This document shows, piece after piece, positions 11,520-53,405 of a stretch of DNA of 53,830 bases. How positions within the stretch are numbered: position 1 is the stretch's first letter; every line of letters starts with the position of its first letter. This DNA is from an uncultured virus (IMG/VR IMGVR_UViG_3300048135_000646) (taxonomy: Duplodnaviria; Heunggongvirae; Uroviricota; Caudoviricetes). Both the position numbers and the translations under genes were made by a program. The notes under the pieces were generated by a model, which saw only the letters and a list, made by a program, of their open reading frames with translations, made no database searches and had not been told where the DNA came from. The DNA lies in IMG/VR virus record IMGVR_UViG_3300048135_000646; one strand, 5' to 3'.

Positions 11520-12368
11520 CTATAAGGTTTTTATATAATCTTCCAATCTATCTTTAGGTGACCAACCTAATTTATTTAAGGTATCGTCATTCTCTCTTTT
11601 AGTGGATCTATAATTACCTGGTTGATCAGGTATATTAATTTTTGGGTGATCACCAAACCTTTCAGTAAACATATTGTAAACTTGATTTATTGAGTAATTC
11701 ATACCTGTTCCTAACTCCCACGCATCTTCATGTTTTTCATTCCCTGTACCCACTTTATAAAGTGCGTCAACGATGTCAATGACATGGGTGAAATCTCTTC
11801 TTTGTTCCCCATCACCAACTATCGTAATAGGTTCCCCTTTTGATACTTGGTGTCTCCATATACCTATCACTGCAGCCCATGTACCATCTACCAATTCATT
11901 AGGACCATACACGTTATAAAATCTACAGATCTCGAAGTCACAACCATAAGCGGTTCTGTACATTTTGAATATATCTTCACCTGTTCTCTTATAAGTTGCG
12001 TACGGAGATGTTTGAGGGTTGCACCATCTTGAGGAGGAACCCGCATAAACCACTTTAATATTGTTTTCCTTAGCCCAATCAGCAACATACTGACAACCAC
12101 CAGCATTAACTCTAAATGTTTCAGTAGGGTCATCAAACGAGGGTTGTATTCTTGACAACGCAGCTAAATGATAACATATATCAAAATTACCACCTATCGA
12201 ATTGATTTGTTCGATGTCATTGTAATGGTAATCACACCCATCTATTTCGTATTCTTTTAAACCCGTAGATAGGTCATCAATTGAGGATACTTCGTGACCC
12301 TCATCTATTAATCTACTAATTAAATTGGAACCAATAAACCCGTTCCCCCCTGTTACTAAAATTTTCAT
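11520..12368 (-). CDS. NAD-dependent nucleotide-sugar epimerase/dehydratase
   Basis: GGNGFIGS Rossmann motif, YATYK, RFYNVYGP and GDGEQRRDFTHV. Confidence 0.92.
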   Translation of the reverse strand: MKILVTGGNGFIGSNLISRLIDEGHEVSSIDDLSTGLKEYEIDGCDYHYNDIEQINSIGGNFDICYHLAALSRIQPSFDDPTETFRVNAGGCQYVADWAKENNIKVVYAGSSSRWCNPQTSPYATYKRTGEDIFKMYRTAYGCDFEICRFYNVYGPNELVDGTWAAVIGIWRHQVSKGEPITIVGDGEQRRDFTHVIDIVDALYKVGTGNEKHEDAWELGTGMNYSINQVYNMFTERFGDHPKINIPDQPGNYRSTKRENDDTLNKLGWSPKDRLEDYIKTL

Positions 12369-12372
12369 ACTA

Positions 12373-13635
12373 TTAATCTATTTTTTTTAATTCAGGTAAA
12401 ACCAATTTAGTTTTCTTTGGTTTAACCTCGTTTATTATTACTGTTTTCAAAATTTCTTCAAATTTAGTTGTTGTAGACTCTAATGAGAAGTTTTCATTAT
12501 TCTCATCTCTGAGTATCTTAGATTTATCTAAAAATTCATCGTACTTCTCTTCCACTATTTTAAAGACCTCAACAACCTCATTGTAATTACATGTAAACCA
12601 TTTTGATTCTTTAAGTATAAAATCATCGGCTGCACTCTCATGTACTTTAGTTAATCTACCTCCTAACATTATTGCCTTATCCATCGGTAAGAAATCCTTA
12701 TGTCCTGACCAGTTAGATGCAATAATTGGTTTACCCGTCATGGAAAATTCTAATAGGGGTCTACCAAAACCCTCACCCTTTGTTAGTGTTACCATAGATT
12801 TAACTTTGGGGTGATTATACAAATCGTTCATCTCATCATCAGTTAGTTGACCAAATAATAGATATATGTTAGGTGGGTTACTGTAGGTTGATGTAATTCT
12901 TTGTATTTTTTTTCTCATAACTTCCCTTTGTTTAATAGAGAAGTTAGCACTAGACGTCTTTAAAATCAATCCTGGTGAGTCTTCCACATCATTGAATGAT
13001 TCACAAAAACATTTAATTAACATACCCACATCTTTTCTATCTTGACCGAGATCGCCCTTCAACCAATGACCAACAAACAAATAATTAAAATCGTTTTCTA
13101 ATTCTAATTTTAAGTCGGATTCTTTTTCATAGTATATTGAAGTGTCCACACCTTCATGAAGAACGTCTAAATCTACGTTTACTTTATGTTGAGATATTAA
13201 TTTACCTGTGACCTTATCTGTTTCATTATAAACTGTTTGTAATAACACATCTCTCGAAAACGTCGATGTGGTTATAACTTTATCCATCCTATTTATCCCA
13301 TCTATCCACTCCTTAGGTGCTGCGGTGGTCTCTATCCCTGCGGTTATACCAATATTGTACTTACCTTTTCTTTGAAATTCATTAGGTACGGTGACTTGAA
13401 CATATATGTCAGGATGAAAATCTAAACTATCTATTATGTTCTCTTCGATCCAAGAATGAAATAGATTAACTTCAGGTTCTAATGCGGTCATAGGAGTCTT
13501 TCCCCAATTACAACTATCAATGTAGATATCGAATTTATCCATATCATATAAGGACTTCAATAAATCTCTTGAATGTGAACCGTAACCACTTAAAGTTTTG
13601 ACTGGTCCCCTAAATAATAGTTTCTGTTTAATCAT
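12373..13635 (-). CDS. Glycosyltransferase family 4 (GT-B)
   Basis: SGYGSHSR N-terminus and GEGFGRPLLEFSMTGKPIIASNWSG. Confidence 0.85.
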   Translation of the reverse strand: MIKQKLLFRGPVKTLSGYGSHSRDLLKSLYDMDKFDIYIDSCNWGKTPMTALEPEVNLFHSWIEENIIDSLDFHPDIYVQVTVPNEFQRKGKYNIGITAGIETTAAPKEWIDGINRMDKVITTSTFSRDVLLQTVYNETDKVTGKLISQHKVNVDLDVLHEGVDTSIYYEKESDLKLELENDFNYLFVGHWLKGDLGQDRKDVGMLIKCFCESFNDVEDSPGLILKTSSANFSIKQREVMRKKIQRITSTYSNPPNIYLLFGQLTDDEMNDLYNHPKVKSMVTLTKGEGFGRPLLEFSMTGKPIIASNWSGHKDFLPMDKAIMLGGRLTKVHESAADDFILKESKWFTCNYNEVVEVFKIVEEKYDEFLDKSKILRDENNENFSLESTTTKFEEILKTVIINEVKPKKTKLVLPELKKID

Positions 13636-13641
13636 GTTGAT

Positions 13642-13878
13642 TTAATCTTCGGTTTGTTTATTTATAAACTCTTGAGGAAAATATTTCTCTAAGGTTGATA
13701 ATCTATCATCAGCATCAACCAACATCGATAACGCCTCCTCTGCGTTTTTATAGAAGTCACCTGTTGAGTGATCCCCAATACCTGATCCTTTGTTACCTAA
13801 AAGATCTAAAGTTAATAACGCTTTTGATTTTTCTGCCAAGGCGTTAGTTCTTAGCATATCGATTAATTTAGTGTTCAT
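13642..13878 (-). CDS. Hypothetical protein (GIGDH motif)
   Basis: 78-aa ORF packed in the operon. Confidence 0.6.
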   Translation of the reverse strand: MNTKLIDMLRTNALAEKSKALLTLDLLGNKGSGIGDHSTGDFYKNAEEALSMLVDADDRLSTLEKYFPQEFINKQTED

Positions 13879-13880
13879 AG

Positions 13881-15257
13881 TTATGTTATTTTAAATAATT
13901 CAAAATTTTTCTTAGGTGTGAATTTAGTTAAGGCGTTCTCCATACCTTTAATTAATGATTCACACATAGTTTTAGTTGAAAAGTTCTTTATCATGTATTT
14001 TCTACCCACAAGACCTCTTCTTTTTCTTTCCTCTCTACCTAAATCGTACATCTTCTTTATTGATGAAACAACATCATAATGATTTATCCTATCATCAAAT
14101 ATGTAAGGCGTATTAATTGACCCGTTAAGAGTTGTAGATGCGGGCCACACAGGACTAACCCACTCACCGTGAGTAACTTTATCTTCCCATTTTTTAGGAT
14201 CATGAAGTGTACCTATATCGATGTAATCACCTGCGGTTAGTGGTTTACCATCTAATTTAAAACCACATTGATCTTGTAATCCACCAGTGACGTTTACTAT
14301 TATTGGGGTACCCGACATTACAGACTCTGCGGTGGTTAGACCAAAACCTTCATTGTTAGCAATGTTTATTGTACAATCTACTGTGTTGTATATTCTATTT
14401 AATTTATCCTGATCGAATTTATCATTGGTGAATTTAACATCATACTTAGGACATAATTCATTGACGACAGCAACCAAGTCAGTACCGTTTTTATCTATTG
14501 ACCTTGTATGCATCAGGAGTAAACACTTACTCGCATCCTCTTCTGAAAGAGTATCACAAAATGTTTTGTATGAATAAATTACATCAGATGGTTGTTTACG
14601 TTTGATGTTTCTGTTATTAAAGAATAATATGAAATCATAGTCTTTGTCACCATGAATAAATTTTTTCATCTCATCATCAACCTCTACGGGTTTGAATGTG
14701 TCTGGATTTATACCGTGAGGCACGTAACTTACCTGCCACTTTTTCAATGGGTTGTGAGTACTTTCCCTTTTAGACATACCAACTCTATTAACAATTCCAT
14801 AGGTTTGTTTGGAGATACACCCCAACCAATCACAAGATTCATAGTAATCTCTATTGTAATAAGGATCTGGTAAATCGTCCCATATATGATAAAAGAAAAT
14901 TGGTACTTGTTGTCTTATTTCATGTTCGTTATCGTACAACCATTGCCAGTAATGTGGATCAGTAAAATGTAATATTGCGTCAGGTTTCTCTATAGAGATT
15001 AATTCTCTTAACCTTTCGATATTACCATAACCATTAGATGGGTATATTTTTACATTTGCATCTTTGACACCAGTTTTATTTCTAACATCATTATTAAGAT
15101 CTACAATCTTACCGAATTCAGGGTGTTTTATTGCCGCACCTAATTGAACCCAATCAAATTTATCGACTGTACCGATAACCATCTCTTTTGACATGGTTGC
15201 CACACCTGAAGTCATTCTCATGTCGTCAGATAAAAGTAAAATCTTTTTCTTACTCAT
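13881..15257 (-). CDS. Glycosyltransferase family 4 (GT-B)
   Basis: VPHGI, NRNIKRK and NEGFGLTTAESVMSGTPIIVNVTGGLQDQ. Confidence 0.87.
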   Translation of the reverse strand: MSKKKILLLSDDMRMTSGVATMSKEMVIGTVDKFDWVQLGAAIKHPEFGKIVDLNNDVRNKTGVKDANVKIYPSNGYGNIERLRELISIEKPDAILHFTDPHYWQWLYDNEHEIRQQVPIFFYHIWDDLPDPYYNRDYYESCDWLGCISKQTYGIVNRVGMSKRESTHNPLKKWQVSYVPHGINPDTFKPVEVDDEMKKFIHGDKDYDFILFFNNRNIKRKQPSDVIYSYKTFCDTLSEEDASKCLLLMHTRSIDKNGTDLVAVVNELCPKYDVKFTNDKFDQDKLNRIYNTVDCTINIANNEGFGLTTAESVMSGTPIIVNVTGGLQDQCGFKLDGKPLTAGDYIDIGTLHDPKKWEDKVTHGEWVSPVWPASTTLNGSINTPYIFDDRINHYDVVSSIKKMYDLGREERKRRGLVGRKYMIKNFSTKTMCESLIKGMENALTKFTPKKNFELFKIT

Positions 15258-15260
15258 AAA

Positions 15261-15464
15261 TTAAAATCTTGAACCACTAACGGCTAAAACATTATGACTA
15301 TCAATTAGACCTCTAAATTCTTCATTGGTGTTATATAAATCTAAAGAACGATTCACCAATTTTTGAAAGTTAAGTCCATCAGTCTCTATCGTCTTGATTC
15401 TGAATTGTTTGTAAGTGTTTTCTATAACGTTAACAGTAGTTAACTTTGTCTTTGCTTTACTCAT
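15261..15464 (-). CDS. Small protein, possible ribbon-helix-helix DNA-binding protein
   Basis: LTTVNV...YKQFR...FQKLVNRSLDLY strand-helix-helix pattern; first gene of the GT cluster. Confidence 0.5.
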   Translation of the reverse strand: MSKAKTKLTTVNVIENTYKQFRIKTIETDGLNFQKLVNRSLDLYNTNEEFRGLIDSHNVLAVSGSRF

Positions 15465-15562
15465 ACTTGTATATATTTCTATATATATAGTTTATATCAA
15501 AAAAATACCACTGCAGAATAATACTGTGGTATTAATTAGATTCATAAATCCACGTACGTGGA

Positions 15563-15685
15563 CTACGAATTTTTCTTCGCCTCTTCTACCTTTACTATTA
15601 CAGGACTGTTCGGTTCCTGTTGAATAATTTTAGTTGTCTGACTGGTTGTCTGTTGTGTTTTCTTTTTTTTACATCCACATCCCAT
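15563..15685 (-). CDS. 40-aa MGCGCKKKK peptide (not in the ORF track)
   Basis: Translates MGCGCKKKKTQQTTSQTTKIIQQEPNSPVIVKVEEAKKNS*; TATTTATA element upstream on the minus strand (15748-15755). Confidence 0.55.
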   Translation of the reverse strand: MGCGCKKKKTQQTTSQTTKIIQQEPNSPVIVKVEEAKKNS

Positions 15686-15872
15686 AATATAAAGTGTTTT
15701 ATAATAATTATTTGGTTTATTAAAAAGTATCACTACTTCTTGTATAGTATAAATATTTTAAAATGATTTATCAATAGTTAACTCAAATAAAAAATCCCAC
15801 TTATTTTCTTTAGGGGGGTTTCTTTTCTAATTTATTTTATGTATATTTTATTATAATCAAACTCAGAATAGA

Positions 15873-18617: not shown

Positions 18618-19640
18618 ATGAATAAGTTAGATGCACAGTACCAAGGATTATTGGATGATATATTAAATTTCGGAGTAAAGAAGAATGATCGTACAGGGAC
18701 AGGTACGTTATCTGTGTTTGGTAGACAGATAAGACATAACATGAACGATGGTTTCCCTCTACTAACAACTAAAAAAATGGCGGTCAAATCCGTAATGACC
18801 GAATTAAAATGGTTTTTAAAAGGAGATACCAATATCAAATACTTAGTGGACAATGGTTGTAAAATTTGGAATGGTGATGCATATAAAAATTACTTAAACA
18901 TTTACAACTATAATTTTAAAGATGACGATACCATCGAACCCCTCACTATGGATGAGTTCATGGAGGATTTCAATGAAGATCAAGAATTTAGAGATCAATG
19001 GGGTGAGTTAGGTCCTATCTACGGAAAACAATGGAGAAATTGGTTCGGATATGATAGTAATGTTAACCCATATTATGTAGACCAAATCTCAAATTTAATT
19101 AATGAACTTAAAGATAATCCTGATAGTAGAAGATTAATGGTGTCGGCATGGAATGTTGGAGAGTTAAGTCAAATGGTTTTACCTCCTTGTCATTATGGTT
19201 TCCAAGTGTATACTAGAGAATTAAATTTAGATGAAAGAATTGACTACCACAATAGAGGTTCTATAAACAAATCTTCAGATTATTTTAGTGAACATATGGA
19301 TGCGATGGGAGTACCAAATAGATCCATATCCTTATCTTGGAATCAGAGATCCGTTGATACATTTTTAGGTTTACCATTTAACATAGCGTCTTATGGAATG
19401 TTACTACATCTAATTGCTGAAGAAGTAAATATGGTACCTGAAGATCTTATAGGTAATTTAGGTGACACCCATTTATATTTGAATCATGTGGAACAAGCGG
19501 AAGAACAATTAAGTAGAGAACCTAAACCTCATTTACCAAAATTAAAGTTAATTAGTTCGGATATTTTAAATGGTGATTTTGATTATGAAATATTACATTA
19601 CCACTCACATCCATCAATAAAGGCACCACTTAGTAACTAA
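18618..19640 (+). CDS. thyA: Thymidylate synthase
   Basis: DRTGTGT, FPLLTTKK, SRR, LPPCH, QRSVDTFLGLPFNIASY and HLYLNH. Confidence 0.97.
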   Translation: MNKLDAQYQGLLDDILNFGVKKNDRTGTGTLSVFGRQIRHNMNDGFPLLTTKKMAVKSVMTELKWFLKGDTNIKYLVDNGCKIWNGDAYKNYLNIYNYNFKDDDTIEPLTMDEFMEDFNEDQEFRDQWGELGPIYGKQWRNWFGYDSNVNPYYVDQISNLINELKDNPDSRRLMVSAWNVGELSQMVLPPCHYGFQVYTRELNLDERIDYHNRGSINKSSDYFSEHMDAMGVPNRSISLSWNQRSVDTFLGLPFNIASYGMLLHLIAEEVNMVPEDLIGNLGDTHLYLNHVEQAEEQLSREPKPHLPKLKLISSDILNGDFDYEILHYHSHPSIKAPLSN

Positions 19641-27226: not shown

Positions 27227-27426
27227 TGGTATTCATAAGTCAAACATACAAGAAGGCAATTAAAGTTATTGATAGTTGTGAAAATGAAGAACAACTAAAG
27301 GGGGCATCAAATTATGTGACCCTATTTAAGAATTACTTTGAAAAATTGGGATCTGACGACCAACTAATAGAAATTTATTATTCAGAACTTAAAAATAAAA
27401 TACTAACTAGATTAGATGAAAATTAA
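27226..27426 (+). CDS. Hypothetical protein
   Basis: 66 aa, overlapping both neighbours. Confidence 0.6.
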   Translation: MVFISQTYKKAIKVIDSCENEEQLKGASNYVTLFKNYFEKLGSDDQLIEIYYSELKNKILTRLDEN

Positions 27427-27958
27427 AAGTACTGACATAAAAGACTGTTACATAATAGAGTCTGATAAATATGTAGATAATAGAGGACACTTCCAAGTAC
27501 CCTTTAATGTCGGTGAATTTAACCAAAAGACGGGAATCACGTTTAAGTTCATCCAAGAGAACGAGTCATTTTCGGAAAAAAATGTTATTAGAGGATTACA
27601 TTTTCAAAAACCCCCATTCGAACAATCTAAGTTGGTTAGGTGTATTTATGGTGGTGTAACTGATGTTATATTAGACATTAGAAAAGACTCTCCAACGTAT
27701 GGAAGGGTGGTAAAGGTAGAGTTAAAAGGGGGTGATTCACAATCTGTTTTTGTACCTAAAGGTTGTGCACATGGGTTCTCCACACAATCAAGAGCGGTTT
27801 TTAATTATAAAGTTGACAATGTCTATTCTAAAGATAGTGAGGGTGGTGTGATATATAATGACCCCGAGTTAAATATAGATTGGAATGTGGGTAAAAAACC
27901 TAAAATATCTGACAAGGATTTATTACTACCCTTTTTCAAAGATTTAGATATTTATTAG
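27416..27958 (+). CDS. rfbC: dTDP-4-dehydrorhamnose 3,5-epimerase
   Basis: DNRGHF, QENESFS, RGLHFQ, QSKLVRC, DIRKDSPTYG, VPKGCAHGF and YKVDN. Confidence 0.95.
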   Translation: MKIKSTDIKDCYIIESDKYVDNRGHFQVPFNVGEFNQKTGITFKFIQENESFSEKNVIRGLHFQKPPFEQSKLVRCIYGGVTDVILDIRKDSPTYGRVVKVELKGGDSQSVFVPKGCAHGFSTQSRAVFNYKVDNVYSKDSEGGVIYNDPELNIDWNVGKKPKISDKDLLLPFFKDLDIY

Positions 27959-30985: not shown

Positions 30986-31015
30986 TTGTATATAATAAAA
31001 TAATTATTATCTTTG
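30986..31015 (+). promoter_or_regulatory. Bacteroidota sigma70-type promoter (TTG...TAnnTTTG)
   Basis: TTG at 30986 and TATCTTTG at 31008-31015. The same architecture appears at 33146, 34975, 36292, 39469, 41757, 44843 and 45417. Confidence 0.75.
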
Positions 31016-38476: not shown

Positions 38477-39445
38477 ATGATTAGAACCGCAGAATGTGTA
38501 TCCCCAATGCACCCAGATAAGATGTGTGACAGAATTTCGGACACATTATTAGACCTACATTTAGAACAAGATCCTAACTCACGATGTGCAATTGAAACTT
38601 GTGGTGGTATGGGAGAAGTTTACATTACAGGAGAAGTTACTTCAAATGCGGTAGTAACAAGAGAAAATATTGTAAAGGTAGTTCATGATGTAACTACCGA
38701 TAACACAATTAATGTTATTATTAATATCAATCAACAATCATCGGAGATTGCTCAAGGAGTTGATATTGGTGGTGCAGGTGACCAAGGAATTATGATTGGT
38801 TATGCTTGTAGAGATAACGATCAAAAATTACCACAGGAATATTTCTTGGCACGTGAATTAAACAAACTTGTATTCGAATTCTTTCCATATGATGGAAAAA
38901 CTCAAGTTACAATGAATGGTAACTCACTTAGAGTTGTATGTTCATTTCAAAACGCACCTCAACACAAATTAGAAGAGTTATGTGTTTTATTTTTTGAAGA
39001 AAATTATCCAATGTATAGGATAGAGTCACTTCATTGTAATCCTGCGGGTGATTGGAACATTGGTGGTTTTACCGCTGATGCGGGTTTAACGGGAAGAAAA
39101 CTAGCAGTGGATAACTACGGACCACGAATACCTATTGGTGGTGGTGCGTTTAGTGGTAAGGACGCAACTAAGGTTGATAGATCCGCAGCATATATGGGAA
39201 GAAGAATTGCAGTGGATATTTTAGAACAAAGACCAGAGGTAAAAGAAGTTATGGTTCAACTTGCGTATGCAATTGGATATGACCAACCACTCCAAGCAAC
39301 TGCAATCGTTGATGGGAAACATGAATTTATCAAAGGATATGATTTATCACCTAAAGGTATAATTGATTTCTTAGAATTAAGAAGACCGATATATAAAGAT
39401 ACCGCGTCATTTGGACACATGGGATGTGATTTTACGTGGAAATAG
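38477..39445 (+). CDS. metK: S-adenosylmethionine synthetase
   Basis: HPDKMCDRISD, GAGDQG, DGKTQV, GLTGRK and GGGAFSGKDATKVDRSAAY. Confidence 0.96.
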   Translation: MIRTAECVSPMHPDKMCDRISDTLLDLHLEQDPNSRCAIETCGGMGEVYITGEVTSNAVVTRENIVKVVHDVTTDNTINVIININQQSSEIAQGVDIGGAGDQGIMIGYACRDNDQKLPQEYFLARELNKLVFEFFPYDGKTQVTMNGNSLRVVCSFQNAPQHKLEELCVLFFEENYPMYRIESLHCNPAGDWNIGGFTADAGLTGRKLAVDNYGPRIPIGGGAFSGKDATKVDRSAAYMGRRIAVDILEQRPEVKEVMVQLAYAIGYDQPLQATAIVDGKHEFIKGYDLSPKGIIDFLELRRPIYKDTASFGHMGCDFTWK

Positions 39446-43404: not shown

Positions 43405-43997
43405 TTAATTGAAAGATAAGATAATAGATAAATTAGTTACTGGTATCCTAATCGTATTAGTTATTTTAATTGTTGGGGACTATATGATCGCCTATAGCGA
43501 GAATAGACCAATAAACGAAAAAATAATTGATTTAATCCACATAACCATCGCAGGTTTAATTGGAATTATAGGTACTTATTATGGTATGAAAAACAAATAA
43601 AATGAGATCACAATTCCTACAAAAATTAATAGAAAAGTTTCCGAATGATTATCAGTTAGGTCAGGCAATTAGAAAGTATCACCGATTGAGGTCAGGGGGA
43701 AAAATAAAACCAGAATGTGAGAAGATTGTATTAAGATCAACCTTCGACGATAACTAAGTAAAAAAATGAGTCACGAACAACAAACTAATGGAACTCCTCA
43801 ACTACAAGGAGAAAGAAACTCTTTCAATCAGAAAGTAGGTTCTTATAGTATATTGGGTAGAACTAAGAAAGTTCTATGGTCTAATAGACGTAGGTGGAGA
43901 AACATATAGAATTGTCAAATGTCTCCTTTACTAATAGAGGGACATGGTTAGTACTCTTGAGTACATAATATTAGGATTAAATACATTTAAATATAAT

Positions 43998-44789
43998 ATG
44001 GGAAATTGGTTTAAAAAGGCGGGAAAAACTATTAAAAAGTCTGCCGATAAGGCCGCAGATAAGGTTAAGGATACAACCAACACCGTTGCGAAAGAAACTA
44101 CTAATACGGCGAACACCGTTGCGAAAGAAACTACTAAGGTAGCTAACACAGTTGCCAAAACAACTACAAATATTTATACTGACTCTAAAAAGGCAGTGGC
44201 GAAAACAACTAACGTAGTTGCTAAAAACACTGAAGAGGCTGCGAAACAAGGATTGGATGTTGCATCTGATACTTGGAAGGAAGGAAGTTCACAAGTAATT
44301 GAGTTTTCAAAAGATGGGTTAGAGTCAATCGAGGACGCTGCGGAGGCGGCAGTCGATTGGTTAGATGAGAATGCATGTTACATCGGATTAAATATGGCAT
44401 TAACAACAGGTTGTGTTACGTACTTCACACCTAAACCCGCACCTGCAGATCCAGGTACTGTGACATCAACTACTATTAGTGCAACCATGTTGGGTGCGAT
44501 CGCGTCAGTTGGTCAGAAAGTTGCGATAATGGTGGTCTCTAAAGAGGTTGGTAAACTTTTGGCGGATGGTATATTTTTAATACCTGGTGTGAAAGGAAAA
44601 TGTGATAAGGAATTATTGACAAGAGTTCTCACTAATGTGATTGCTAAGTCGAATCCTATATATACCACAGCCGCGTTATCAACACCAGCGGGAGTTGGTT
44701 TGTTTGTTGGGTCAGTAGTTTCACCGATAGTGGCAACACTAATTTGTGAGGGAGTGGTACCAAATGGGTTCTCTAAATTAGACGATTAA
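43998..44789 (+). CDS. Protein with 11-residue amphipathic repeats and a hydrophobic C-terminal domain
   Basis: MGNWFKKAGK...; NTVAKETT repeats with a 33-nt period; start reassigned to 43998. Confidence 0.7.
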   Translation: MGNWFKKAGKTIKKSADKAADKVKDTTNTVAKETTNTANTVAKETTKVANTVAKTTTNIYTDSKKAVAKTTNVVAKNTEEAAKQGLDVASDTWKEGSSQVIEFSKDGLESIEDAAEAAVDWLDENACYIGLNMALTTGCVTYFTPKPAPADPGTVTSTTISATMLGAIASVGQKVAIMVVSKEVGKLLADGIFLIPGVKGKCDKELLTRVLTNVIAKSNPIYTTAALSTPAGVGLFVGSVVSPIVATLICEGVVPNGFSKLDD

Positions 44790-44819
44790 AAAAAAAATAT
44801 AAATATTTTTATTATTTTA

Positions 44820-44850
44820 TTGATTTAATAAAAAATGTTTTATATATTTG
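44820..44850 (+). promoter_or_regulatory. Bacteroidota-type promoter driving the ncRNA
   Basis: TTG (44820)-N20-TATATTTG (44843-44850). Confidence 0.75.
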
Positions 44851-44916
44851 TACCAACAAAAGGGATAGGTTGAACAAAACGATACCGATTGACCCCTAAC
44901 GTTCTTTAAAATATTG

Positions 44917-45320
44917 AAAAGAGGCAGGATTAAGATTGATCATCAATATCCTGAGTGTATGGGAGAATAAATCTTTGTGAAAGGGGATTAATCCACACTG
45001 ACAGTAGACACGTTCTACTATTTTTGCTGAGGTTCGCAAGACTGATGTAAAGATATCTTGACAAAGAAGAAGTGGTAGACATTACACAAGCTAAACAGCT
45101 TACTTTCAAACTCATTGTGAGACGGTCGAAAGATCAAACTCATCTTGTGACTGAATAACCCTTCTGTTCGGGGGTAAGGTAAACTATAAGGGGTTGTACC
45201 CGCATCGTAGGATTAACACTCCGAAAATGAATCAATGTAAAAATTGGTATAGTTGTATGAGTATAAAACACGACAGAATGATCTTCCTTGGATAGCATAC
45301 CGAGGTATACATCCTCTTTT
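44917..45320 (+). ncRNA. Large structured non-coding RNA (~400 nt), class unassigned
   Basis: No plus-strand ORF; closing helix AAAAGAGG/CCTCTTTT; about 10 internal helices and three GNRA tetraloops; flanked by a promoter and a terminator. Confidence 0.75.
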
Positions 45321-45327
45321 TTATAAT

Positions 45328-45362
45328 AAACCCTTTTCCGGTAACGGTTAAGGGTTTTTTTA
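45328..45362 (+). terminator. Intrinsic terminator after the ncRNA
   Basis: AAACCCTT-TT-CCG-GTAA-CGG-TT-AAGGGTTT followed by a T tract. Confidence 0.8.
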
Positions 45363-45438
45363 TGTAATAATATTAAAGAATTTCAATTATAATTTTGTAT
45401 ATCCTAAAAAATATATTATATTTGGTGAAATTAAAAGT

Positions 45439-45630
45439 ATGAAAATTTTTGCAGTAAAAAACGGTATAAGATATTTCAGAGAACGATTAGAGTCTACGGA
45501 CAATAAAGACAGAAAGGTCTACTATAGAAACGAAATTTATAGGTTGGAAGAAAAACTGTATAATTTACAATTTAAAGAAGAAGAAAACCATTATGGTGAA
45601 ATTATTCAGGAACGAGAAGGGTCAGATTAA
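45439..45630 (+). CDS. Hypothetical protein
   Basis: 63 aa, following the promoter at 45417. Confidence 0.55.
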   Translation: MKIFAVKNGIRYFRERLESTDNKDRKVYYRNEIYRLEEKLYNLQFKEEENHYGEIIQEREGSD

Positions 45631-45784
45631 ATTATTAGAAGGTCAGGTAGAACTTGTGGGTTCAGACGGTAAAAAGATACGACACCACCCAACTAAATTC
45701 TCAATATGTGGGTGCGGAAAAAGTAAAACAATATTATGTGATGGTTCACACAAACCAAAAGAAGATGAAAGTAAAGAAAATTGA
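45593..45784 (+). CDS. CDGSH iron-sulfur domain protein
   Basis: SICGCGKSKTILCDGSH. Confidence 0.88.
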   Translation: MVKLFRNEKGQIKLLEGQVELVGSDGKKIRHHPTKFSICGCGKSKTILCDGSHKPKEDESKEN

Positions 45785-46046
45785 TACACCATTAGAGGTT
45801 GTTTCCAAAGAAGTACAACGATGGATAGACAAAACAGAAGATGAGAACGCAAAATTTCCCCTTCATGCGGTCTTAGAAATAATTAAAACCTTATCTGTGG
45901 AAGAAGAAAAGTTTGCGGGTAAAATGTACGATTATGGTGCAAGTGGTAGATATGGTTATACTACAGGTAGAAAGTTTTATAAATCTGAATTTTTGGGTCA
46001 TGGGAAAAAAGAAAACAGTAAAATTGAAGAGCTGGGAGTTTGTTAA
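45765..46046 (+). CDS. Hypothetical protein
   Basis: Probable start MKVKKID at 45765. Confidence 0.5.
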   Translation: MKVKKIDTPLEVVSKEVQRWIDKTEDENAKFPLHAVLEIIKTLSVEEEKFAGKMYDYGASGRYGYTTGRKFYKSEFLGHGKKENSKIEELGVC

Positions 46047-46460
46047 AGATAGAAAACACAATTTAACAACATTGAGTGAATGGGATGATCCCTCACACTT
46101 TTATTATCAATTTGATGGATATATGTACTATCCCTCAGTTTCTAAACATGATCTGGATATGTTATATAGGTCCCCAAACACATGACTTTACATCATCAAT
46201 TATTTTACTTAAGTTAAGGTAAGAATCTTAAATTGTATAAATTATGAATCACTGGTTAAATGAGGGAAGACAAATCCTCGACGAAAAACAAATAGATCAA
46301 TATAATAAAATAGAGAGGAAACCTACATTGGGTTGTTTGATCATAGTTGGAGGGACGATCATGTTTTGGTCATTTGTTTATTGGGTTTATCTATTATTCA
46401 CCACATAATTTGATTTATTATAAAATTTTATTTATATTTTAATAACAACACCAAAGAGAG

Positions 46461-46811
46461 ATGAGAAAATGGTATAGAAATATGAAAGATAAGGGTTATT
46501 TGGATTCGGCCTTCATATTGTTAAGTTTATCACTAATATTATCATTTGTCATGTTAGTTAGTTCATTAACAAATGGTTATGAATTTCGGCCAACCGAAAA
46601 TAGTCGACAAAATGACACAGTATTTATAACTGATACTGTATATATAGAGCAACTAATAAACTTAGATAGGTTAGATAGTATAGAAGAGATATTATACTAC
46701 GAAGTCATCGAGGATCAACTTTATCTATATACAAAGAAAGACTCTATTAGGGATGAGATTGAGAGATGGAACTACATAAGAAGTTTAGATCCTGAAGGGT
46801 GGGAACAATGA
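46461..46811 (+). CDS. Membrane-anchored hypothetical protein
   Basis: TM segment and a DTVFITDTVY motif common in Bacteroidota proteins. Confidence 0.6.
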   Translation: MRKWYRNMKDKGYLDSAFILLSLSLILSFVMLVSSLTNGYEFRPTENSRQNDTVFITDTVYIEQLINLDRLDSIEEILYYEVIEDQLYLYTKKDSIRDEIERWNYIRSLDPEGWEQ

Positions 46812-47095
46812 GTGAAAAGGTACCTTACGAACCAAAATGTAAGAAATGTGGTAAGATATTACCATTGGGTTTAGGTTTAACAGTAGTTTGTATAGAATGT
46901 ATAATAAAAAGACCAAAATAAATTAATGAACTATGGCAAAATTTAAATTCACTACAAAGAGCGGTACTCATGTTTCCGCATGTGAAACTAACACCGAAGA
47001 GAAAGCGTGGTTATGGATCTCTAAAGTTAAAGACCTAACCCTAAAACAATCGAAAGATTTGTATAATATTAAAAAATTAGATTAAATAAAAACAA

Positions 47096-47470
47096 ATGAG
47101 TGAAAAAATTTACGTCCGTAAAATAGAGACTTGGACAATCTCATCTGCAAGTGCACCTATTGAGATTAACGTAGACGCATTAAGAAAGTGTGTACCACCA
47201 TATGAAGGTGATTCAGAACAAGAATTGGTAAACTATCTACAAAACGAAGTGTGGAATGAGTACGAATTCTATGAGAATGAAACTAATAAAGAAGTTTATG
47301 GTGAGGATGAGGTCTATGAATTATGTATGGAGGAGGCCTATGTTGAGAATGAGTTCTTCGATTCTCGCACTAAAGGATGTGATGAATCTATTCAAGTGGG
47401 TGTACCAAATGAGGAGTGGACAAAACAAGGTGGTTTCCAACCATTAGCATATGGAGAAAACGAATATTAG
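47096..47470 (+). CDS. Acidic hypothetical protein
   Basis: 124-aa ORF. Confidence 0.6.
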   Translation: MSEKIYVRKIETWTISSASAPIEINVDALRKCVPPYEGDSEQELVNYLQNEVWNEYEFYENETNKEVYGEDEVYELCMEEAYVENEFFDSRTKGCDESIQVGVPNEEWTKQGGFQPLAYGENEY

Positions 47471-47475
47471 TATAG

Positions 47476-47658
47476 ATGGACAAAGGACAATTATACGAAC
47501 AGTTTCTATCTGAGTACACCAGATTAGAAAATCAGATAGGTCAGATTAAAATGAACAAGTTTGAATTAAATGCGGAGGATCAAAAGAAGGTGGACCTATT
47601 AGAAAGAAAGAAAACCTACATTATGGGTAGAGTAGAAGAATTACAAAGAAATATTTAA
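47476..47658 (+). CDS. Small coiled-coil protein
   Basis: 60-aa ORF. Confidence 0.55.
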   Translation: MDKGQLYEQFLSEYTRLENQIGQIKMNKFELNAEDQKKVDLLERKKTYIMGRVEELQRNI

Positions 47659-47678
47659 CTAATAATCCGTGGTAATCA

Positions 47679-49286
47679 ATGGAACTTGTACAGAAATTTA
47701 ATCAAGTAACTAAACAACAAAGTGTTTACGATGTTCAGGTTGGTGTAGAGGAGATCATTACGGATCAGGATGAGATCAAAAAATTATACGGAGATAAGAA
47801 TTACCGTATAGAATCACAGACCTTAGAGAGAAAGTTAAGTATAAAAGATAATGTACTAATTCTCAAGAAGAGTCTTCTTATAAAAATTCGTAGAGAGGGT
47901 AAACTGTACTTCTCAAAGAAGTTAGAAGTTAGGTATCTAAAAATAGACTTCAACACCGGTAATTTTCTAACTCTATATAGTTTCGGTGGGATTAAAAGGA
48001 AGAGACAACTAATCATAAGAAGAAATTGTTTTGATAAGTTAGAACCGTTCTTTAACTTCAGTAACAGTGATTTTTGGGATTCAGGTGTATTCAAAAATAT
48101 GCAGTATGGTGATAGACTATTTAGAATCCATAACGCAACCCTACAAAAACCAATTACCGATTTTCTAATGAGGAAATATTCATCCTCATGGTCAGGTAAA
48201 GATATTACGGGTCTATTCTCCCGTATTTTCATAGAAATAAAAGGAATAAAGGTACCAAATAATGATATTGACAGACTTATCACATGTTTTTATCCTACAC
48301 AGAAATTCTTAAAGAAAAATAATAATAAGTTAGTCCAATCTGCATTGGATTATATGGGTATGAACGAAAGTTACACTGTAAAATTAGTTCACAAATACCC
48401 TGAATTGGACTATAGGTTATTGAAAACTCTTCACCACATGTTAGGTGGATCAAAATATCTAAGTAATGTAGATCCAAGGTTTTTCACAGACATAAAAGAT
48501 TTTGTGGATCAGGGGGTAATAGTAAGTGACCCCAATATAAATAAATTCAGTTTACGAGTATTGGCGGAAAACCTAAAACAACTACCCGAGTTGTCTAATA
48601 AGGAAAAGGGTAACTTAGTCAAAGTTATAAATGATGTGGTTGATAATGAAACTATGTCAAAAATTGGTTTACCGTGGCATATGTTTATGGATCACCTCAA
48701 TATGATAGGAAAGATACGTCCTTATGATTCAAATGTAGGTTTACATTCAACAACATTCAGGACATTCAATATAGAACATACCGAACTTTCAAATCAAGTA
48801 AGTAAAATAGATAAAGGGTTTGTTATTTCATATAAGTTTAATCCTCAGATGGTTAAAGATGTAGAAACACCTTTAGGTCTTAATGGTGAGTATGTACCAT
48901 ACATACTTAAAGATGAGTCGGAATACACTGAAGAAGGTAAGTACATGAAACATTGTGTGGGGACCTATTACGATAAGGACAAATCAATTATTATCTCCTT
49001 AAGAAATAATAGTAATTTCACTGCCGGTGGAGGAAATGAAAGATGGACAATGGAGTTTGATACAAGGAGTGGTTACCTGATTCAATGTAAGGGTAAACAA
49101 AATAGTCCCGCACCACCACATATAATGGACATGGTAAAAAATGATCTTTTAAAGAAAACAATTACGTGGTCAAGTTCCAATAAGTTGAAGTCTATGAAGA
49201 AAGTGGTGATTCCATTGAAAATAAACGGTAAGGAGGTAGATGTATCAAATCGTATTATACATCATGATATGGATTTACCATTTTAA
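47679..49286 (+). CDS. PcfJ-like domain protein, paralog of 20574-22004
   Basis: EYTEEGKYMKHCVGTY...IISLR...QCKGKQNS; YPTQKFLKKNNNKLV compared with YPKQKYLKTNDRKFV in the paralog. Confidence 0.7.
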   Translation: MELVQKFNQVTKQQSVYDVQVGVEEIITDQDEIKKLYGDKNYRIESQTLERKLSIKDNVLILKKSLLIKIRREGKLYFSKKLEVRYLKIDFNTGNFLTLYSFGGIKRKRQLIIRRNCFDKLEPFFNFSNSDFWDSGVFKNMQYGDRLFRIHNATLQKPITDFLMRKYSSSWSGKDITGLFSRIFIEIKGIKVPNNDIDRLITCFYPTQKFLKKNNNKLVQSALDYMGMNESYTVKLVHKYPELDYRLLKTLHHMLGGSKYLSNVDPRFFTDIKDFVDQGVIVSDPNINKFSLRVLAENLKQLPELSNKEKGNLVKVINDVVDNETMSKIGLPWHMFMDHLNMIGKIRPYDSNVGLHSTTFRTFNIEHTELSNQVSKIDKGFVISYKFNPQMVKDVETPLGLNGEYVPYILKDESEYTEEGKYMKHCVGTYYDKDKSIIISLRNNSNFTAGGGNERWTMEFDTRSGYLIQCKGKQNSPAPPHIMDMVKNDLLKKTITWSSSNKLKSMKKVVIPLKINGKEVDVSNRIIHHDMDLPF

Positions 49287-49482
49287 AATAATGATATGAG
49301 TAAAGATGAAATTAAAGATTTAGAGTTTGATGTGGACAGCATCGATTCGTTGGAGGTAATTAGAGTTACCGATAAAAGTGAGTACCAGCTCGTTTTCAAA
49401 TTAGAAAAGGGGGAACACTACCAAGACATAGAGTTTAGTGTGGGTGAAGATGGTAAGTCACTAAGAATATTTGTTAAATAAT

Positions 49483-49791
49483 ATGGGAAAAGTTAAAGAT
49501 CATTTAAAAAAGTACATAGGTTATTACTTCTTGGTAATGGCCGCTTGGTTAATTTACGAAGGAGAAGGATTAGGGTGGTTCCTTATATTGGTAACCTTCC
49601 TAAAGGCACCACCATTTGACTGGATCGGTAGATTAGAGTCATGGGGTGGGGAACTATCTTATAAGTGGGGAATGAAACTAAGAAAGTGGAAAGAAAAACA
49701 GGTTAAACCGATCAGAATATTAGTCACGATAATCTGTATCATTATAATCATATTAATTTTTTGGTTCGCACCTGAATGTGAACTGTGTTAA
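49483..49791 (+). CDS. Small membrane protein
   Basis: Hydrophobic segments and C-terminal CELC. Confidence 0.55.
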   Translation: MGKVKDHLKKYIGYYFLVMAAWLIYEGEGLGWFLILVTFLKAPPFDWIGRLESWGGELSYKWGMKLRKWKEKQVKPIRILVTIICIIIIILIFWFAPECELC

Positions 49792-49851
49792 TCCCCCGAA
49801 GGGGTCCGTTTCGGTCTGAGGCGGTCGTTCGGGTAAAATGAGGGGTAAATT

Positions 49852-50103
49852 ATGACAAAAGAGTATACGTATAAAGACAATATGGAGGTTATGGATCACA
49901 TCATTAATGAGTTAATGATCGTTAGAACCACACAGGAAATCGAGGGATTCGATAAGGCAACCATGATAACGTTTCTAACTATGTTCCCATCAGTATCTGA
50001 AAAGGGGGATATTATAGAGAGAATGTTTAATGATTATTGTGATGATTACACAGTAAAAGAATGGTACGAGAGTCTATTCAAAGTAAAAATCACAAAGAGA
50101 TGA
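49852..50103 (+). CDS. Hypothetical protein
   Basis: 83-aa ORF. Confidence 0.55.
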   Translation: MTKEYTYKDNMEVMDHIINELMIVRTTQEIEGFDKATMITFLTMFPSVSEKGDIIERMFNDYCDDYTVKEWYESLFKVKITKR

Positions 50104-50280
50104 TGAGTCAAAAAACACTAATGGACAACATCAACAGAGATGATGTATGGGATAGTGCAAAACACGATTATGCCTCGATTCTATTAGAGACTTATGATTC
50201 AGAAGATACAAGGAAGTTCCTATGGGATAAATTCAAAACCACGGGGGATTATTACTATTGTTCAATACTAAAATGAAGTA

Positions 50281-51057
50281 ATGTTATGTAAGAAATGTAA
50301 TAAAGAATTCACACCAAAGAAGGGGGCAAGGAATTACTGTAGTGTCTCTTGTGCAAATTCAAGGACATTCTCAGTAGAGAGTAGGATAAAGAAATCCATA
50401 AAAACCAAGAGAGCTCGAAATCGGGGGGATTACGATCATCTAAATATGAAAGTCATTAATAATGATAAAGAAAAGATCGATAAGTCTACTCAAACGTGGG
50501 TAATCAATTATGAAAAGAAAAGGGGTGAGGGTTATTTACATTCTTGGGACACTATAAGGAAATATCATTTTATAAAACAAAACCATACCTGTCAAGTATG
50601 TGGGTTAAGTGAGTGGATGGGGAAACAGATTCCTTTAGAACTTCATCACATAGATGGTAGAAGAAATAACAACCATGACGATAATCTTCAGGTGATATGT
50701 CCTAACTGTCATTCTCAGACGGACAACTATTGTGGAAAGAACATTAATGATCGTCATCCTGTGGATATTAATGAGAGGGAAGAATTGGGGACAAAGATTG
50801 AACTATTCACTTATAAAGAGATTTTGGAGGATTGGAAAAATTGTGTGATAAAACCAAAAGGGTATCATAGAAAGAGAGATTATCTAAGTAACAAGTATAA
50901 ACTATCTGCCGGAACGATCGGTAAGTTAATTTATATTTACAAAAAGGGACCATTATACATAGAGATGTTGGATAGTGACAGTGATCTAAGTATAAACATG
51001 GTATACAAATTACTTCATGAAACCAATGAGGACCTTCACAAATATTTTGAGGAATAA
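50281..51057 (+). CDS. HNH endonuclease with zinc-finger N-terminus
   Basis: CKKC..YCSVSC; CQVCG...LELHHIDG...NNHDDNLQVICPNCHSQT. Confidence 0.9.
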   Translation: MLCKKCNKEFTPKKGARNYCSVSCANSRTFSVESRIKKSIKTKRARNRGDYDHLNMKVINNDKEKIDKSTQTWVINYEKKRGEGYLHSWDTIRKYHFIKQNHTCQVCGLSEWMGKQIPLELHHIDGRRNNNHDDNLQVICPNCHSQTDNYCGKNINDRHPVDINEREELGTKIELFTYKEILEDWKNCVIKPKGYHRKRDYLSNKYKLSAGTIGKLIYIYKKGPLYIEMLDSDSDLSINMVYKLLHETNEDLHKYFEE

Positions 51058-51081
51058 ACCAATATAACAAATAAATAAAAG

Positions 51082-51834
51082 ATGGAAACAAAACCAATAG
51101 AGTACGTTTATGTAGGAAGAATAATAGATCATTTAAATAGGTTTGTGGATGATTACCATAAGATAGGGGTATCAACCAAACTTATGGCAAGAGAAAAACA
51201 ATTAAGTCCCACTCATTATCCCCATGATGTTCAGTTAGTCAGAATATTTAAAACAGAAAATATGAGAAGGACTGAAGCGATACTACACACTTGTTTCACA
51301 GACTACAGGGTAAAGAAGACCTACAATAAGAAAAAGAAAAAAACGGAATGGTTCTATATAACAGAACCTGAGATATTGGACGCTAGGATTGATAAGTTGG
51401 TACGTAATCTGCCGGGGGTTGAAGAAGTAGATATTGAATTTGCAATTAATGCAGATAAGGACATACTGAAGAACGATAAGAAAGGAATGATCGATAACCA
51501 TAGGAAATCGAGAACAAGACTACAGTTAATATACAAGGGGGAAAATATAACTAAGAATACATCAACAGAAACATACCTCACTACTTTAGGTTTGATTGCA
51601 GAACAATCGGGGTGGGAAAAACTAATGAACAATGAAGTTAGGATAACAACCACTAAGACTGAATTGTGGGAGAGAAACCCAAGTTCAAGTGAGAGTCAGA
51701 TAAAACTATATAAGAAACATTGGTTTTTCACGGGGAATAACAATGAAGTAAAGACAAAGAATCTTAATAAACTAATAAAGAAACTTGATATAAAGGATAT
51801 AGAGGTTTCCATATTAGAGTATACACCAATATAA
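51082..51834 (+). CDS. GIY-YIG (T5orf172/MUG113-like) nuclease
   Basis: YVYVG...KIGVS...REKQLS...EAILH...EWF. Confidence 0.8.
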   Translation: METKPIEYVYVGRIIDHLNRFVDDYHKIGVSTKLMAREKQLSPTHYPHDVQLVRIFKTENMRRTEAILHTCFTDYRVKKTYNKKKKKTEWFYITEPEILDARIDKLVRNLPGVEEVDIEFAINADKDILKNDKKGMIDNHRKSRTRLQLIYKGENITKNTSTETYLTTLGLIAEQSGWEKLMNNEVRITTTKTELWERNPSSSESQIKLYKKHWFFTGNNNEVKTKNLNKLIKKLDIKDIEVSILEYTPI

Positions 51835-51948
51835 CAAAGAAATGAATAGTAAAACTAGATACAGAACGTTAATAATAGTATTGTATGTGTTATTCTGTGT
51901 GGCATATACCACAATACAATTAGTACGCATGATTATTAATTTAATATA

Positions 51949-52572
51949 GTGAATCCATTTAAGTTCAATTATAAGGTAGGTACTATTCTCACAGAACAGG
52001 AATGTAATGATATTCTTAAAGACATATCTTCACAAGATGATAGGTTTATAGTAACTCCTGATCATGGTGAGTTAGACATTTCAGTGTATGAGATTGCAAT
52101 AGATAACCTTAATACTTGTGTGGGTAAGAGTATTATAAAGAATAAGATTAAGGAATTAGAAAAAAGGTTAGGGGTTAAGTATGATGGTGATAGATTCATT
52201 ATCAGGTATAGTGATGATAAACTTGAGATGAAACCTCACTATGATGCATATGCGGATAGTACTCTTATTTATTTAACTACAGATTTTGAGGGTGGATCCA
52301 CTAACTTTCCTATTGCGGGGGTGGAACATAAACCACAAGATTATAAACCAGGTCACTACATACATTATAACTCGAGACACTTATTATCTTTTCACGGGGG
52401 AATGCCTGTAACAAAGGGTATTAAGATTGCAATTGTTCTAAGAGCTACGAAGAATAATATATGGACTTATGTATTGGGTATACCATGGATGTTCCTTTGC
52501 GTGGGGTTTCTACATGTAATAGAAAAGTTCTTTAATAAGGGTATAAGGAAGAATCCTAAAAGCGGGGGATAA
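51949..52572 (+). CDS. 2OG-Fe(II) oxygenase (prolyl/lysyl hydroxylase-like)
   Basis: RY...PHYD...IYLTTDFEGGST.F...HGGMPVTKGIK. Confidence 0.85.
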   Translation: MNPFKFNYKVGTILTEQECNDILKDISSQDDRFIVTPDHGELDISVYEIAIDNLNTCVGKSIIKNKIKELEKRLGVKYDGDRFIIRYSDDKLEMKPHYDAYADSTLIYLTTDFEGGSTNFPIAGVEHKPQDYKPGHYIHYNSRHLLSFHGGMPVTKGIKIAIVLRATKNNIWTYVLGIPWMFLCVGFLHVIEKFFNKGIRKNPKSGG

Positions 52573-52742
52573 TGAGAATAAAGAAGTTCATTAAACGTAT
52601 AAAAGAAAACCCTGATAAAGAAATTAGAAGGGCAACTAATATGTTAAAAAAGAAAGAATCTCTAAGAAAGGAAGTTAAGTCAAAACGTCCTGTAGGTATG
52701 GAATACCAAGACAGGTACGGTTATCGAAAATCGGGGGGATAA
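52572..52742 (+). CDS. 56-aa basic hypothetical protein
   Basis: MRIKKFIKRI...GYRKSGG*, with a TAATG overlap. Confidence 0.45.
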   Translation: MRIKKFIKRIKENPDKEIRRATNMLKKKESLRKEVKSKRPVGMEYQDRYGYRKSGG

Positions 52743-52955
52743 ACCAATATCAATATAGATAATACTATAGATGAAATAGATATAGTTATAGTATATGTTA
52801 TTCTTAAAACTCATAGGTACTCTAATAGTATTCTATATCATAATGAATAGATTCTTCAAATGGTTAGATAAGTAGATATACTCAATTACCATACGTACAA
52901 ATTAAAAAGTATTATACGTAACTACATATAGAATATAGATAAAGAACTATAGTAT

Positions 52956-53405
52956 ATGTATAAGAATATAATCCCAACTCTCATAGTAATAATCTCCCTA
53001 ATAGGTAATAGTCTATATAGTCAAATAGATTGTAGTCCCTATCATAAAATAAGAAACTATAGTATAGATGATAAAGGTAACTATGGTATCTCTTATGTAA
53101 CTTGTTTTCATGCACAAGGTGTAGTAGTAGATCTAAGTTATAAGAGTATAATGATAGGAACTCATATGATGGATAAAGGTCATAACAATACAGTATATGG
53201 ATTCATAAGTTATAGGTATTTCATAGGTAGAAAAACCATAGTTCATATGGGTCCTTTATATAAGATAAATAACGATTCAGGATTACTCATTTGTCAGTAT
53301 GGTTTGGACCATAATCTGTATGGTCCTGTATATTTGACAAGTAGATTCCTACAGGTAAAAAGAGATCTAAATTATCTAAATGTAGGTATTAAAATAACCC
53401 TATAG
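52956..53405 (+). CDS. Putative secreted small beta-barrel protein
   Basis: Signal peptide (SLYSQ), alternating strands, and C-terminal NVGIKITL. Confidence 0.5.
   Translation: MYKNIIPTLIVIISLIGNSLYSQIDCSPYHKIRNYSIDDKGNYGISYVTCFHAQGVVVDLSYKSIMIGTHMMDKGHNNTVYGFISYRYFIGRKTIVHMGPLYKINNDSGLLICQYGLDHNLYGPVYLTSRFLQVKRDLNYLNVGIKITL

Follow-up and report, generated by a model that had tools for sequence, protein, structure and literature searches.

What is made from the longest gap without a credible open reading frame (ORF) in a piece of marine viral DNA? The piece, called the window throughout its length, is a stretch of 53,830 nucleotides (nt) from an uncultured virus of the Caudoviricetes (IMG/VR record IMGVR_UViG_3300048135_000646). 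Positions 44820–45362 of it had been described in an earlier note, drawn from the letters alone, as a stand-alone non-coding RNA, possibly of a new class resembling ROOL or GOLLD. The element is a gene for a structured RNA, carried by an uncultured giant phage of marine origin. Its folded body (44916–45321, ~406 nt, + strand) is related to the manA RNAs (Rfam RF01745) and, judged by sequence comparison, very probably holds two manA-type cores in one frame together with an added outer helix. The gap is the longest in the window, as the note had held: when ORFs of at least 80 amino acids (aa) are counted, the longest ORF-free stretch is 44790–45653 (864 nt), the runner-up has 615 nt, and all ORFs inside 44790–45438 have at most 61 aa.

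Family relationship and architecture of the RNA

At gathering scores, no Rfam family is matched in the window. In the cmscan comparison that the earlier note had proposed as a check, manA matches 45131–45315 over the full model (47.3 bits, E 6.4e-11) and is the only significant family among the 10 matches with E up to 10 in 44700–45500. This match covers what is termed here core 2; core 1 lies 5' of it.

Relatives were collected with a pattern derived from core 2, which found 9 viral and 26 metagenome loci. After deduplication, the window clade consists of 13 full-length distinct sequences, the window included, that are 76–100% identical. Two distant clades, at 44–57% identity, comprise L069, L197 and L230, and L188 and L249, respectively. 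Core 2 exceeds the manA gathering cut-off of 55.2 bits in L188 (67.6 bits) and L249 (61.6 bits), and is below it in L030 (49.6 bits), L199 (48.1 bits), L069 (42 bits), L197 (38.6 bits) and L230 (34.4 bits). Every 5' half with a match has manA as its top family, core 1 scoring 29.5 bits in L188 (E 3.5e-6, the model running off the 3' end), 23.9 bits in L249 and 19.7 bits in L197. Classical single-core manA RNAs taken through the same procedure give one match each (L003, 122 bits; L016, 65.7; L005, 63.5; L009, 62.5).

The signature internal loop of manA (UGaCUGAAUAA ... UAAgGu), which surrounds a hairpin, is present in core 2 at 45148–45180 with high posterior probability. The segment GTGACTGAATA, which had reminded the earlier reader of ROOL or GOLLD, is in fact this signature. 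Behind the signature hairpin stands the manA four-way junction with three hairpins (45182–45254). Core 1 carries a reduced signature, GAAUAA ... UAA, at 44962–44994. The 5' strand of the manA closing stem was not found directly 5' of the core 2 signature, where cmscan deletes or mispairs it; the closing 3' strand pairs instead with 44955–59, 5' of core 1. P9 is present (45286–305) and core 2 is without a supported P8. The hairpin at the P8 position of core 1 pairs in 7/13 sequences. The RNA also departs from the 5' untranslated region (UTR) position of manA in having its own promoter-like block and terminator, the next ORF having a block of its own.

Models of ROOL, GOLLD, OLE, HEARO, introns and RNase P gave no match in 44700–45500 at E up to 10, and ARAGORN found no tRNA or tmRNA in the region. 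The earlier statement that the RNA is neither tmRNA nor RNase P is thereby confirmed; the proposed likeness to ROOL or GOLLD is not, and the suggested new class gives way to the manA relationship, L188 and L249 being above the cut-off.

Covariation was assessed for 116 pairs in 23 helices on an alignment (A2) of the 13 distinct sequences. Paired cells amount to 96.3%, compared with 92.4±0.4 in shuffled controls (reached by 0/500) and 39–48% with slid partners. Pairs changed on both sides number 22 (shuffles 12.5±1.8, 0/500; slid partners 0–5), and the covariation score is 0.187 (shuffles 0.113, 0/500; slid partners 0.045–0.059). Compensated changes occur in 10 helices in total. Core 2 has eight pairs changed on both sides, in its junction stem and in two of its hairpins (two pairs in 45203–12/45220–29, three in 45232–36/45243–47), and one such pair lies at 44962–64/44992–94. 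Alignments of L188 with L249 and of L069 with L230 add compensated changes in P2, in both junction stems and in several hairpins. The helices at 44973–84, 45117–43, 45158–75 and 45190–201 are invariant or changed on one side only, and covariation neither shows nor refutes them. On the + strand, G-U pairs fill 160 cells of the alignment and 56 cells are unpaired; the − strand would give 196 unpaired cells, which agrees with the orientation that the note had deduced from the G-U pairs.

These compensated changes speak against reading the region as a non-functional gap whose hairpins arose by chance, as an element acting at the level of DNA or as an overlooked gene for a small protein, readings for which the unremarkable z-scores of the minimum free energy (MFE) and the ORFs of 31–61 aa that occur in the gap could be adduced. 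The relatives differ within the RNA by indels of 1, 2 and 4 nt, incompatible with any reading frame, and the significant manA match and the identical contigs in RNA libraries of four studies (see below) point the same way. Such an explanation is disfavoured and scarcely credible.

Several results count against the double-core reading and its fold. Core 2 of the window is itself below the manA cut-off, and core 1 of the window has manA as its best Rfam family at a weak 13.5 bits (E 0.2). A core-1 model (R1) built from nine sequences of the window clade (effective number 0.87) detected no core 1 in L069, L197, L188, L230 or L249 at E up to 10, and its weak matches to core 2 of L230 (E 0.19) and L197 (E 0.43) are no better than chance matches elsewhere in the window. 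Homology of the 5' half across clades thus rests on the Rfam matches, position and architecture. The 13 aligned sequences are closely related and two of them served in part to derive the structure, so that the controls lean in its favour. The number of further pair types, one of five measures, equals the shuffles (52 vs 52.1, 314/500; slid partners 17–23). The folding energy of the + strand (−124 kcal/mol, z −1.56, 6/100 shuffles as good) is not above chance, and that of the − strand (z −2.16) is likewise unremarkable.

Table 1. Elements of the RNA unit and its surroundings, with window coordinates and the evidence for each.
Element	Position	Strand	Evidence
Promoter-like block, TTG-N20-TATATTTG (−33 TTG, ~20 nt, −7 TAnnTTTG)	44820–44850	+	Sequence, consensus scan, relatives
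Leader hairpin	44861–44897	+	Hairpin retained in relatives with other letters and lengths
U-rich leader block (boxA-like element of the earlier note)	44898–44915	+	Nearly invariant in window clade
P1, outermost closing helix	44916–44924 / 45313–45321	+	2 pairs changed on both sides
P2 hairpin, equivalent to manA 5' hairpin of core 1, invariant self-complementary 6-mer at tip	44925–44953	+	1 pair changed on both sides
P3, shared closing stem	44955–44959 / 45306–45310	+	Pairs in 13/13
Core 1: internal-loop hairpin with GAAUAA, then junction with three hairpins (45003–19, 45020–54, 45056–67)	44961–45076	+	Covariation
Hairpin at P8 position of core 1	45088–45101	+	5 base pairs in 7/13, 3 in the other 6
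Helix enclosing core 2	45110–45115 / 45257–45262	+	Invariant in window clade
GAAA-loop hairpin, equivalent to manA 5' hairpin of core 2	45117–45143	+	One-sided G-U to A-U or G-C changes only
Core 2: hairpin with manA signature loop, then three-hairpin four-way junction	45148–45254	+	manA match, covariation
Linker with invariant CAGAAUG	45263–45285	+	No supported pairing found
Last hairpin (P9 position), invariant 7-nt stretch in loop	45286–45305	+	3 pairs changed on both sides
Intrinsic terminator: 8 base pairs, internal loop, 3 base pairs with GUAA loop, U run	45328–45364	+	4 pairs changed on both sides
Separate promoter-like block of next gene	45394–45424	+	Form match; −7 box kept in relatives seen

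Among the helices drawn in the earlier note, compensated pairs occur in the outer closing helix (44917–24/45313–20 in the note; two pairs in 44916–24/45313–21), in P2 at 44925–53 (one pair), in the helices of 45003–19 (one pair, 45003–08/45014–19) and 45019–55 (two pairs, 45020–27/45047–54), in the stem AACTATA/TATAGTT of 45182–254 (three pairs, 45182–88/45248–54) and in that of 45286–305 (three pairs, 45286–91/45300–05). The extension of the closing helix by GTGTAT/ATACAT was placed in the wrong register, its pair 44959–45308 being A-C in 8/13 sequences. P3 in the present register shows a G-U to G-C change at 44957–45308 and has equivalents of 5 base pairs (bp) in L069, L197 and L188; candidate local partners of 44955–58 are 44995–98 (invariant) and 45083–87 (window subclade only). 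The hairpin AAGCT/AGCTT (45088–101) stands as aligned in seven of the 13 sequences and is kept in the other six as a hairpin of 3 bp; at this position it is longer in L069, L197 and L188.

In the distant clades, several helices recur in changed sequence, P3 among them. A helix of different sequence stands at the P1 position, and P2 is wholly different in sequence and length in L069, L230, L188 and L249. The helix enclosing core 2, absent from the earlier list, has 7-bp equivalents with other letters in L069/L197 and L188, and the GAAA-loop hairpin is kept with other letters in L069 and L188. The junction stem of core 1 (44996–98/45072–74) is invariant, and the placement of the core 2 junction stem is ambiguous in the L069 clade. 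A pseudoknot between the tip of P2 and 45278–83 was dropped, the changes in L196 and L199 being uncompensated.

The transcription unit and its presence in RNA libraries

The order of elements given in the earlier note, from a promoter-like block through a leader hairpin, a U-rich block and the folded body to a terminator, was recovered position by position, and the RNA reads as a stand-alone + strand unit with signals of its own at both ends. Both boxes of the promoter-like block are conserved in relatives and the spacer is variable; a consensus scan reports a promoter-like site at 44820–48. The leader hairpin is found again in relatives despite changed letters and lengths, and a block resembling 44898–44915 also lies 5' of P1 in the distant clades. 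The strong terminator claimed 3' of the body is upheld by its four compensated pairs, though a consensus terminator scan did not flag 45328–64.

The window has at least nine intergenic + strand sites of the form TTG-N19-21-TAnnTTTG, including the block of the RNA; promoters of this type are known from Bacteroidota. The sites, at 31008, 33146, 34975, 36292, 39469, 41757, 43092, 44843 and 45417 (+), stand mostly just 5' of ORF starts, and a longer −33 block is common to three of them. Counts of promoter motifs do not exceed chance (5 vs 2.39 expected, matched in 9/100 shuffles; 10 vs 7.44 expected, matched in 25/100 shuffles), and the −7 box, found upstream of 2/49 ORFs of at least 100 aa vs 2.0 expected, shows no excess.

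Transcripts of the locus were sought in RNA libraries. In six RNA runs, from six studies, 42–47% of the words sampled from a 1001-nt stretch were found, approximately the share that the RNA takes up in it. Contigs of four RNA runs, belonging to four studies, have zero differences from the window over the stretch covered, namely 44887–45305 in X15 (word depth 1127), 44887–45315 in X16 (1083), 44962–45282 in X19 (4.8) and 44921–45396 in X20 (12.6). This is good evidence that the body of the RNA is present in RNA pools. Contigs of the upstream gene in X15 and X16 have depths of 2–12, a hint of high RNA abundance from a quantity, contig depth, that is a poor measure of expression, and contigs give no strand, ends or level. 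X15 and X16 are without cover past 45315, and the start of the contigs at 44887 is what a variant site breaking the assembly graph would give; at 44869 and 45305, adapter letters mark fragment ends, not proven RNA ends.

The next gene after the RNA is an ORF of 63 aa (45439–45630, + strand), which has no family match and has its own promoter-like block between the terminator and its start. The −7 box of this block is retained in the examined relatives despite differing surrounding sequence. The ORF follows the RNA in 5/6 window-clade loci examined, the sixth being too short to tell. The gene upstream of the RNA is changed in L198 and L199, and the ORF persists 3' of the RNA in spite of such changes upstream. 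In the clades of L069 and L188, this link between the RNA and the small ORF is missing.

This neighbourhood bears on a cis-acting leader, that is, a tandem-aptamer riboswitch or attenuator in which the closing helix would decide between termination at 45328–64 and read-through towards the 63-aa ORF and genes farther downstream. The manA RNAs were described in 2010 as cis-regulatory, a riboswitch candidate of 5' UTRs (PMC2864571). The terminator lies 6 nt 3' of the closing helix, the same small ORF stands downstream on the same strand in the window clade, the X20 contig passes through the terminator to 45396, and a pair of homologous domains followed by a terminator is reminiscent of tandem aptamers. 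The conserved promoter-like block of the next gene argues against a leader, as does the RNA unit staying in place while the upstream gene changes. The same holds for the L069 clade, in which the RNA lies 3' of a tRNA-Gly gene and the start of the next ORF is ~350 nt away. As to a switching device, no conserved antiterminator was found, the complementarity seen being that of purine and pyrimidine tracts only, and the terminator has no overlap with P1. A cis-acting leader is improbable on these grounds; we consider it likely that the RNA is free-standing and acts in trans.

The tRNA-Gly gene of the L069 clade lies at L185 (402–474), and tRNA genes also stand directly beside the single-core manA RNAs of L016 (558–631) and L008 (1–57). 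A conserved block of ~20 nt is found ~60–90 nt 3' of the RNA in L188, L249 and L185, where it precedes a gene whose product starts with MD(I/L)NAI(K/R)KRLNQLQTTN.

Possible modes of action

In vitro, single manA RNAs assemble without protein into a 60-mer cage, decamers and an octamer, joined by kissing loops and a GNRA contact, according to a preprint (10.64898/2026.07.01.735769). It is by analogy with these single RNAs that a trans-acting, possibly self-assembling particle is favoured for the double-core RNA. The promoter-like block would start a + strand transcript with a short leader and the intrinsic terminator would end it. Each core folds into a GAAUAA internal-loop hairpin followed by a junction with three hairpins, P3 serves both cores as one closing stem, and the outer helix P1 clamps P3, with core 1 retaining the hairpin at the P8 position and core 2 the hairpin at the P9 position. 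This structure, the kinship with manA and the occurrence of the body in RNA libraries are taken as shown. By inference, the RNA would work as a folded particle rather than as the leader of the next gene, and loop contacts may join it into a multimer of defined size with two protomers per chain.

A self-complementary 6-mer at the tip of P2, shared by the window clade and that of L188, is in line with self-assembly. The loops and single-stranded runs that are invariant amid covarying stems (GAAUAAA, UGAAUA, GUUGUA, UAGCAUA) were also counted for a self-assembling particle. The same runs would suit any specific binding surface, and they are shared with a second explanation, in which a stand-alone monomeric RNA would, without assembly, bind a small molecule or a protein of host or phage through its cores and serve as a sponge, scaffold or decoy. 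What speaks for a free-standing unit, the RNA libraries included, fits a monomer equally, and the small ORF, always 3' of the RNA in the window clade, has a product that could be a partner of the RNA. Neither the L069 clade nor the L188 clade has this candidate partner linked to the RNA, and the only experimental data on manA report self-assembly free of protein. A monomeric RNA appears rather unlikely.

Other observations weaken the case for assembly. Oligomers are known for single manA RNAs only, and the kissing-loop pairs of classical manA are not kept in the double-core RNA. Complementarity between the P8 and P9 loops extends over 7 nt in L188 and L249 and over only 3–4 nt in the remaining clades; in the window, part of it falls within a stem. 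A kiss between these loops was considered and is not established, convincing complementarity being confined to L188 and L249. Self-assembly of the double-core RNA, as predicted from the single RNAs, is put at somewhat less than even odds. The explanation favoured as a whole is a free-standing double-core RNA gene that would act in trans and most likely assemble with itself, and confidence in it falls somewhat short of even. A more specific form of it is possible and on the unlikely side: two manA protomers, naturally joined by a covalent link, would build a cage or ring of RNA alone inside infected cells, from half as many chains as usual. If it were true, the single P8 loop (of core 1) and the single P9 loop (of core 2) in each chain would set how chains are joined, and the RNA would be the first sign of manA-type RNAs as free-standing particles in vivo and not gene leaders.

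The RNA described here bears on the whole manA family. We know of no role established for manA RNAs in cells. Here a manA-type RNA is free-standing, with start and stop signals, has a fused pair of cores and occurs in the RNA libraries of several ocean studies, which argues for re-reading at least part of the family as RNA genes rather than leaders. It also extends the family to giant phages, with a Flavobacteriaceae host hinted at (see below). For structural biology it offers a natural tandem protomer, which might give a 30-chain cage, a ring or nothing. The motif has stood as an orphan riboswitch candidate since 2010 (PMC2864571). No paper on a tandem or double manA RNA was found in a literature search in which the supplements of PMC2864571 were searched for the name only and those of the preprint were not covered; the words tandem and fused are absent from the preprint (10.64898/2026.07.01.735769).

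Phage, host and comparison with known systems

Near-identical copies of the RNA occur on IMG/VR contigs, that on G001 being 100% identical over 601 nt; in 50,697 phage records, blastn found nothing that matches the region. The contig G002 (143 kb) has one copy and G003 (329 kb), a more distant relative, has zero. Relatives of the upstream 281-aa protein, which had no match in the phage records, were found at 34 loci. The RNA is present at only the five closest, and the core motif CTGAATAA is absent downstream of that gene at the remaining 29/34. Wider pattern searches added few relatives. A loose two-motif pattern hit at least 119 stretches, nearly all by chance and with L069/L077 as the only real ones. 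A further pattern search gave 37 loci, 29 of them distinct, with four real ones, L226 (identical to L069), L230, L232 (identical to L188) and L249. L214, L259 and L260 were rejected as chance matches in coding-looking DNA.

CheckV completeness is 22% for G001 (59 kb) and 43% for G002, from which a phage genome near 270–330 kb was worked out. A 248-kb contig in a metagenome-assembled genome (MAG) labelled Flavobacteriaceae (L261; G004:C1:232277-243126) is syntenic with window positions 43900–53000 at 72–94% identity, the RNA included, and is likely to come from a giant phage that was binned together with its host. This contig and the promoter type hint at a Flavobacteriaceae host, binning being no proof. 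A tblastn search with the S-adenosylmethionine (SAM) synthetase found 40% matches in Streptococcus phages only and is uninformative for the host.

Genes of the window include those for tail fibres, sugar metabolism, thymidylate synthase and SAM synthetase. A cluster of sugar or exopolysaccharide type occupies 9207–15257 (−) and comprises two GT2 genes, DUF3431, an NAD epimerase/GDP-mannose-dehydratase-like gene, GT1 and GT4; it is 30 kb from the RNA. Outside this cluster are dTDP-4-dehydrorhamnose epimerase (27416–27958), thymidylate synthase (18618–19640) and SAM synthetase (38477–39445). Classical manA and wcaG RNAs are located near sugar-type genes in cyanophages. Two further stretches of the window without an ORF of at least 80 aa, 15258–15872 (615 nt) and 43405–43943 (539 nt), have no Rfam match at gathering score. 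An HNH endonuclease gene adjoins a T5orf172/MUG113 gene at 50281–51834, with the look of homing endonucleases.

Three groups of known RNAs invite comparison. Tandem riboswitch aptamers, such as those of the glycine riboswitch, likewise place two homologous domains in one transcript before a terminator; no expression platform was found in the present RNA, however, and a promoter-like block of its own precedes the next gene. ROOL, GOLLD and OLE are large, stand-alone RNAs with many helices that are often found in phages or prophages, and they form RNA-only multimers. The RNA of the window would resemble them in its working only if it self-assembles, and it differs from them in being smaller and of another fold family; their Rfam models find nothing in it at E up to 10. 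The closest relation is to manA (RF01745; Weinberg et al., 2010, PMC2864571). Unlike manA, the present RNA has two cores in ~406 nt with one common closing stem, plus an outer helix and a further helix that encloses core 2. Its core 2 lacks a 5' closing strand of its own and a clear P8, the classical kissing-loop sequences are replaced and the score is below the cut-off. A promoter-like block and a terminator take the place of the 5' UTR position, and the host is probably not a cyanobacterium. Common to both are the signature internal loop beside a hairpin, the four-way junction with three hairpins, the terminal hairpin before the closing strand and the occurrence in marine phages.

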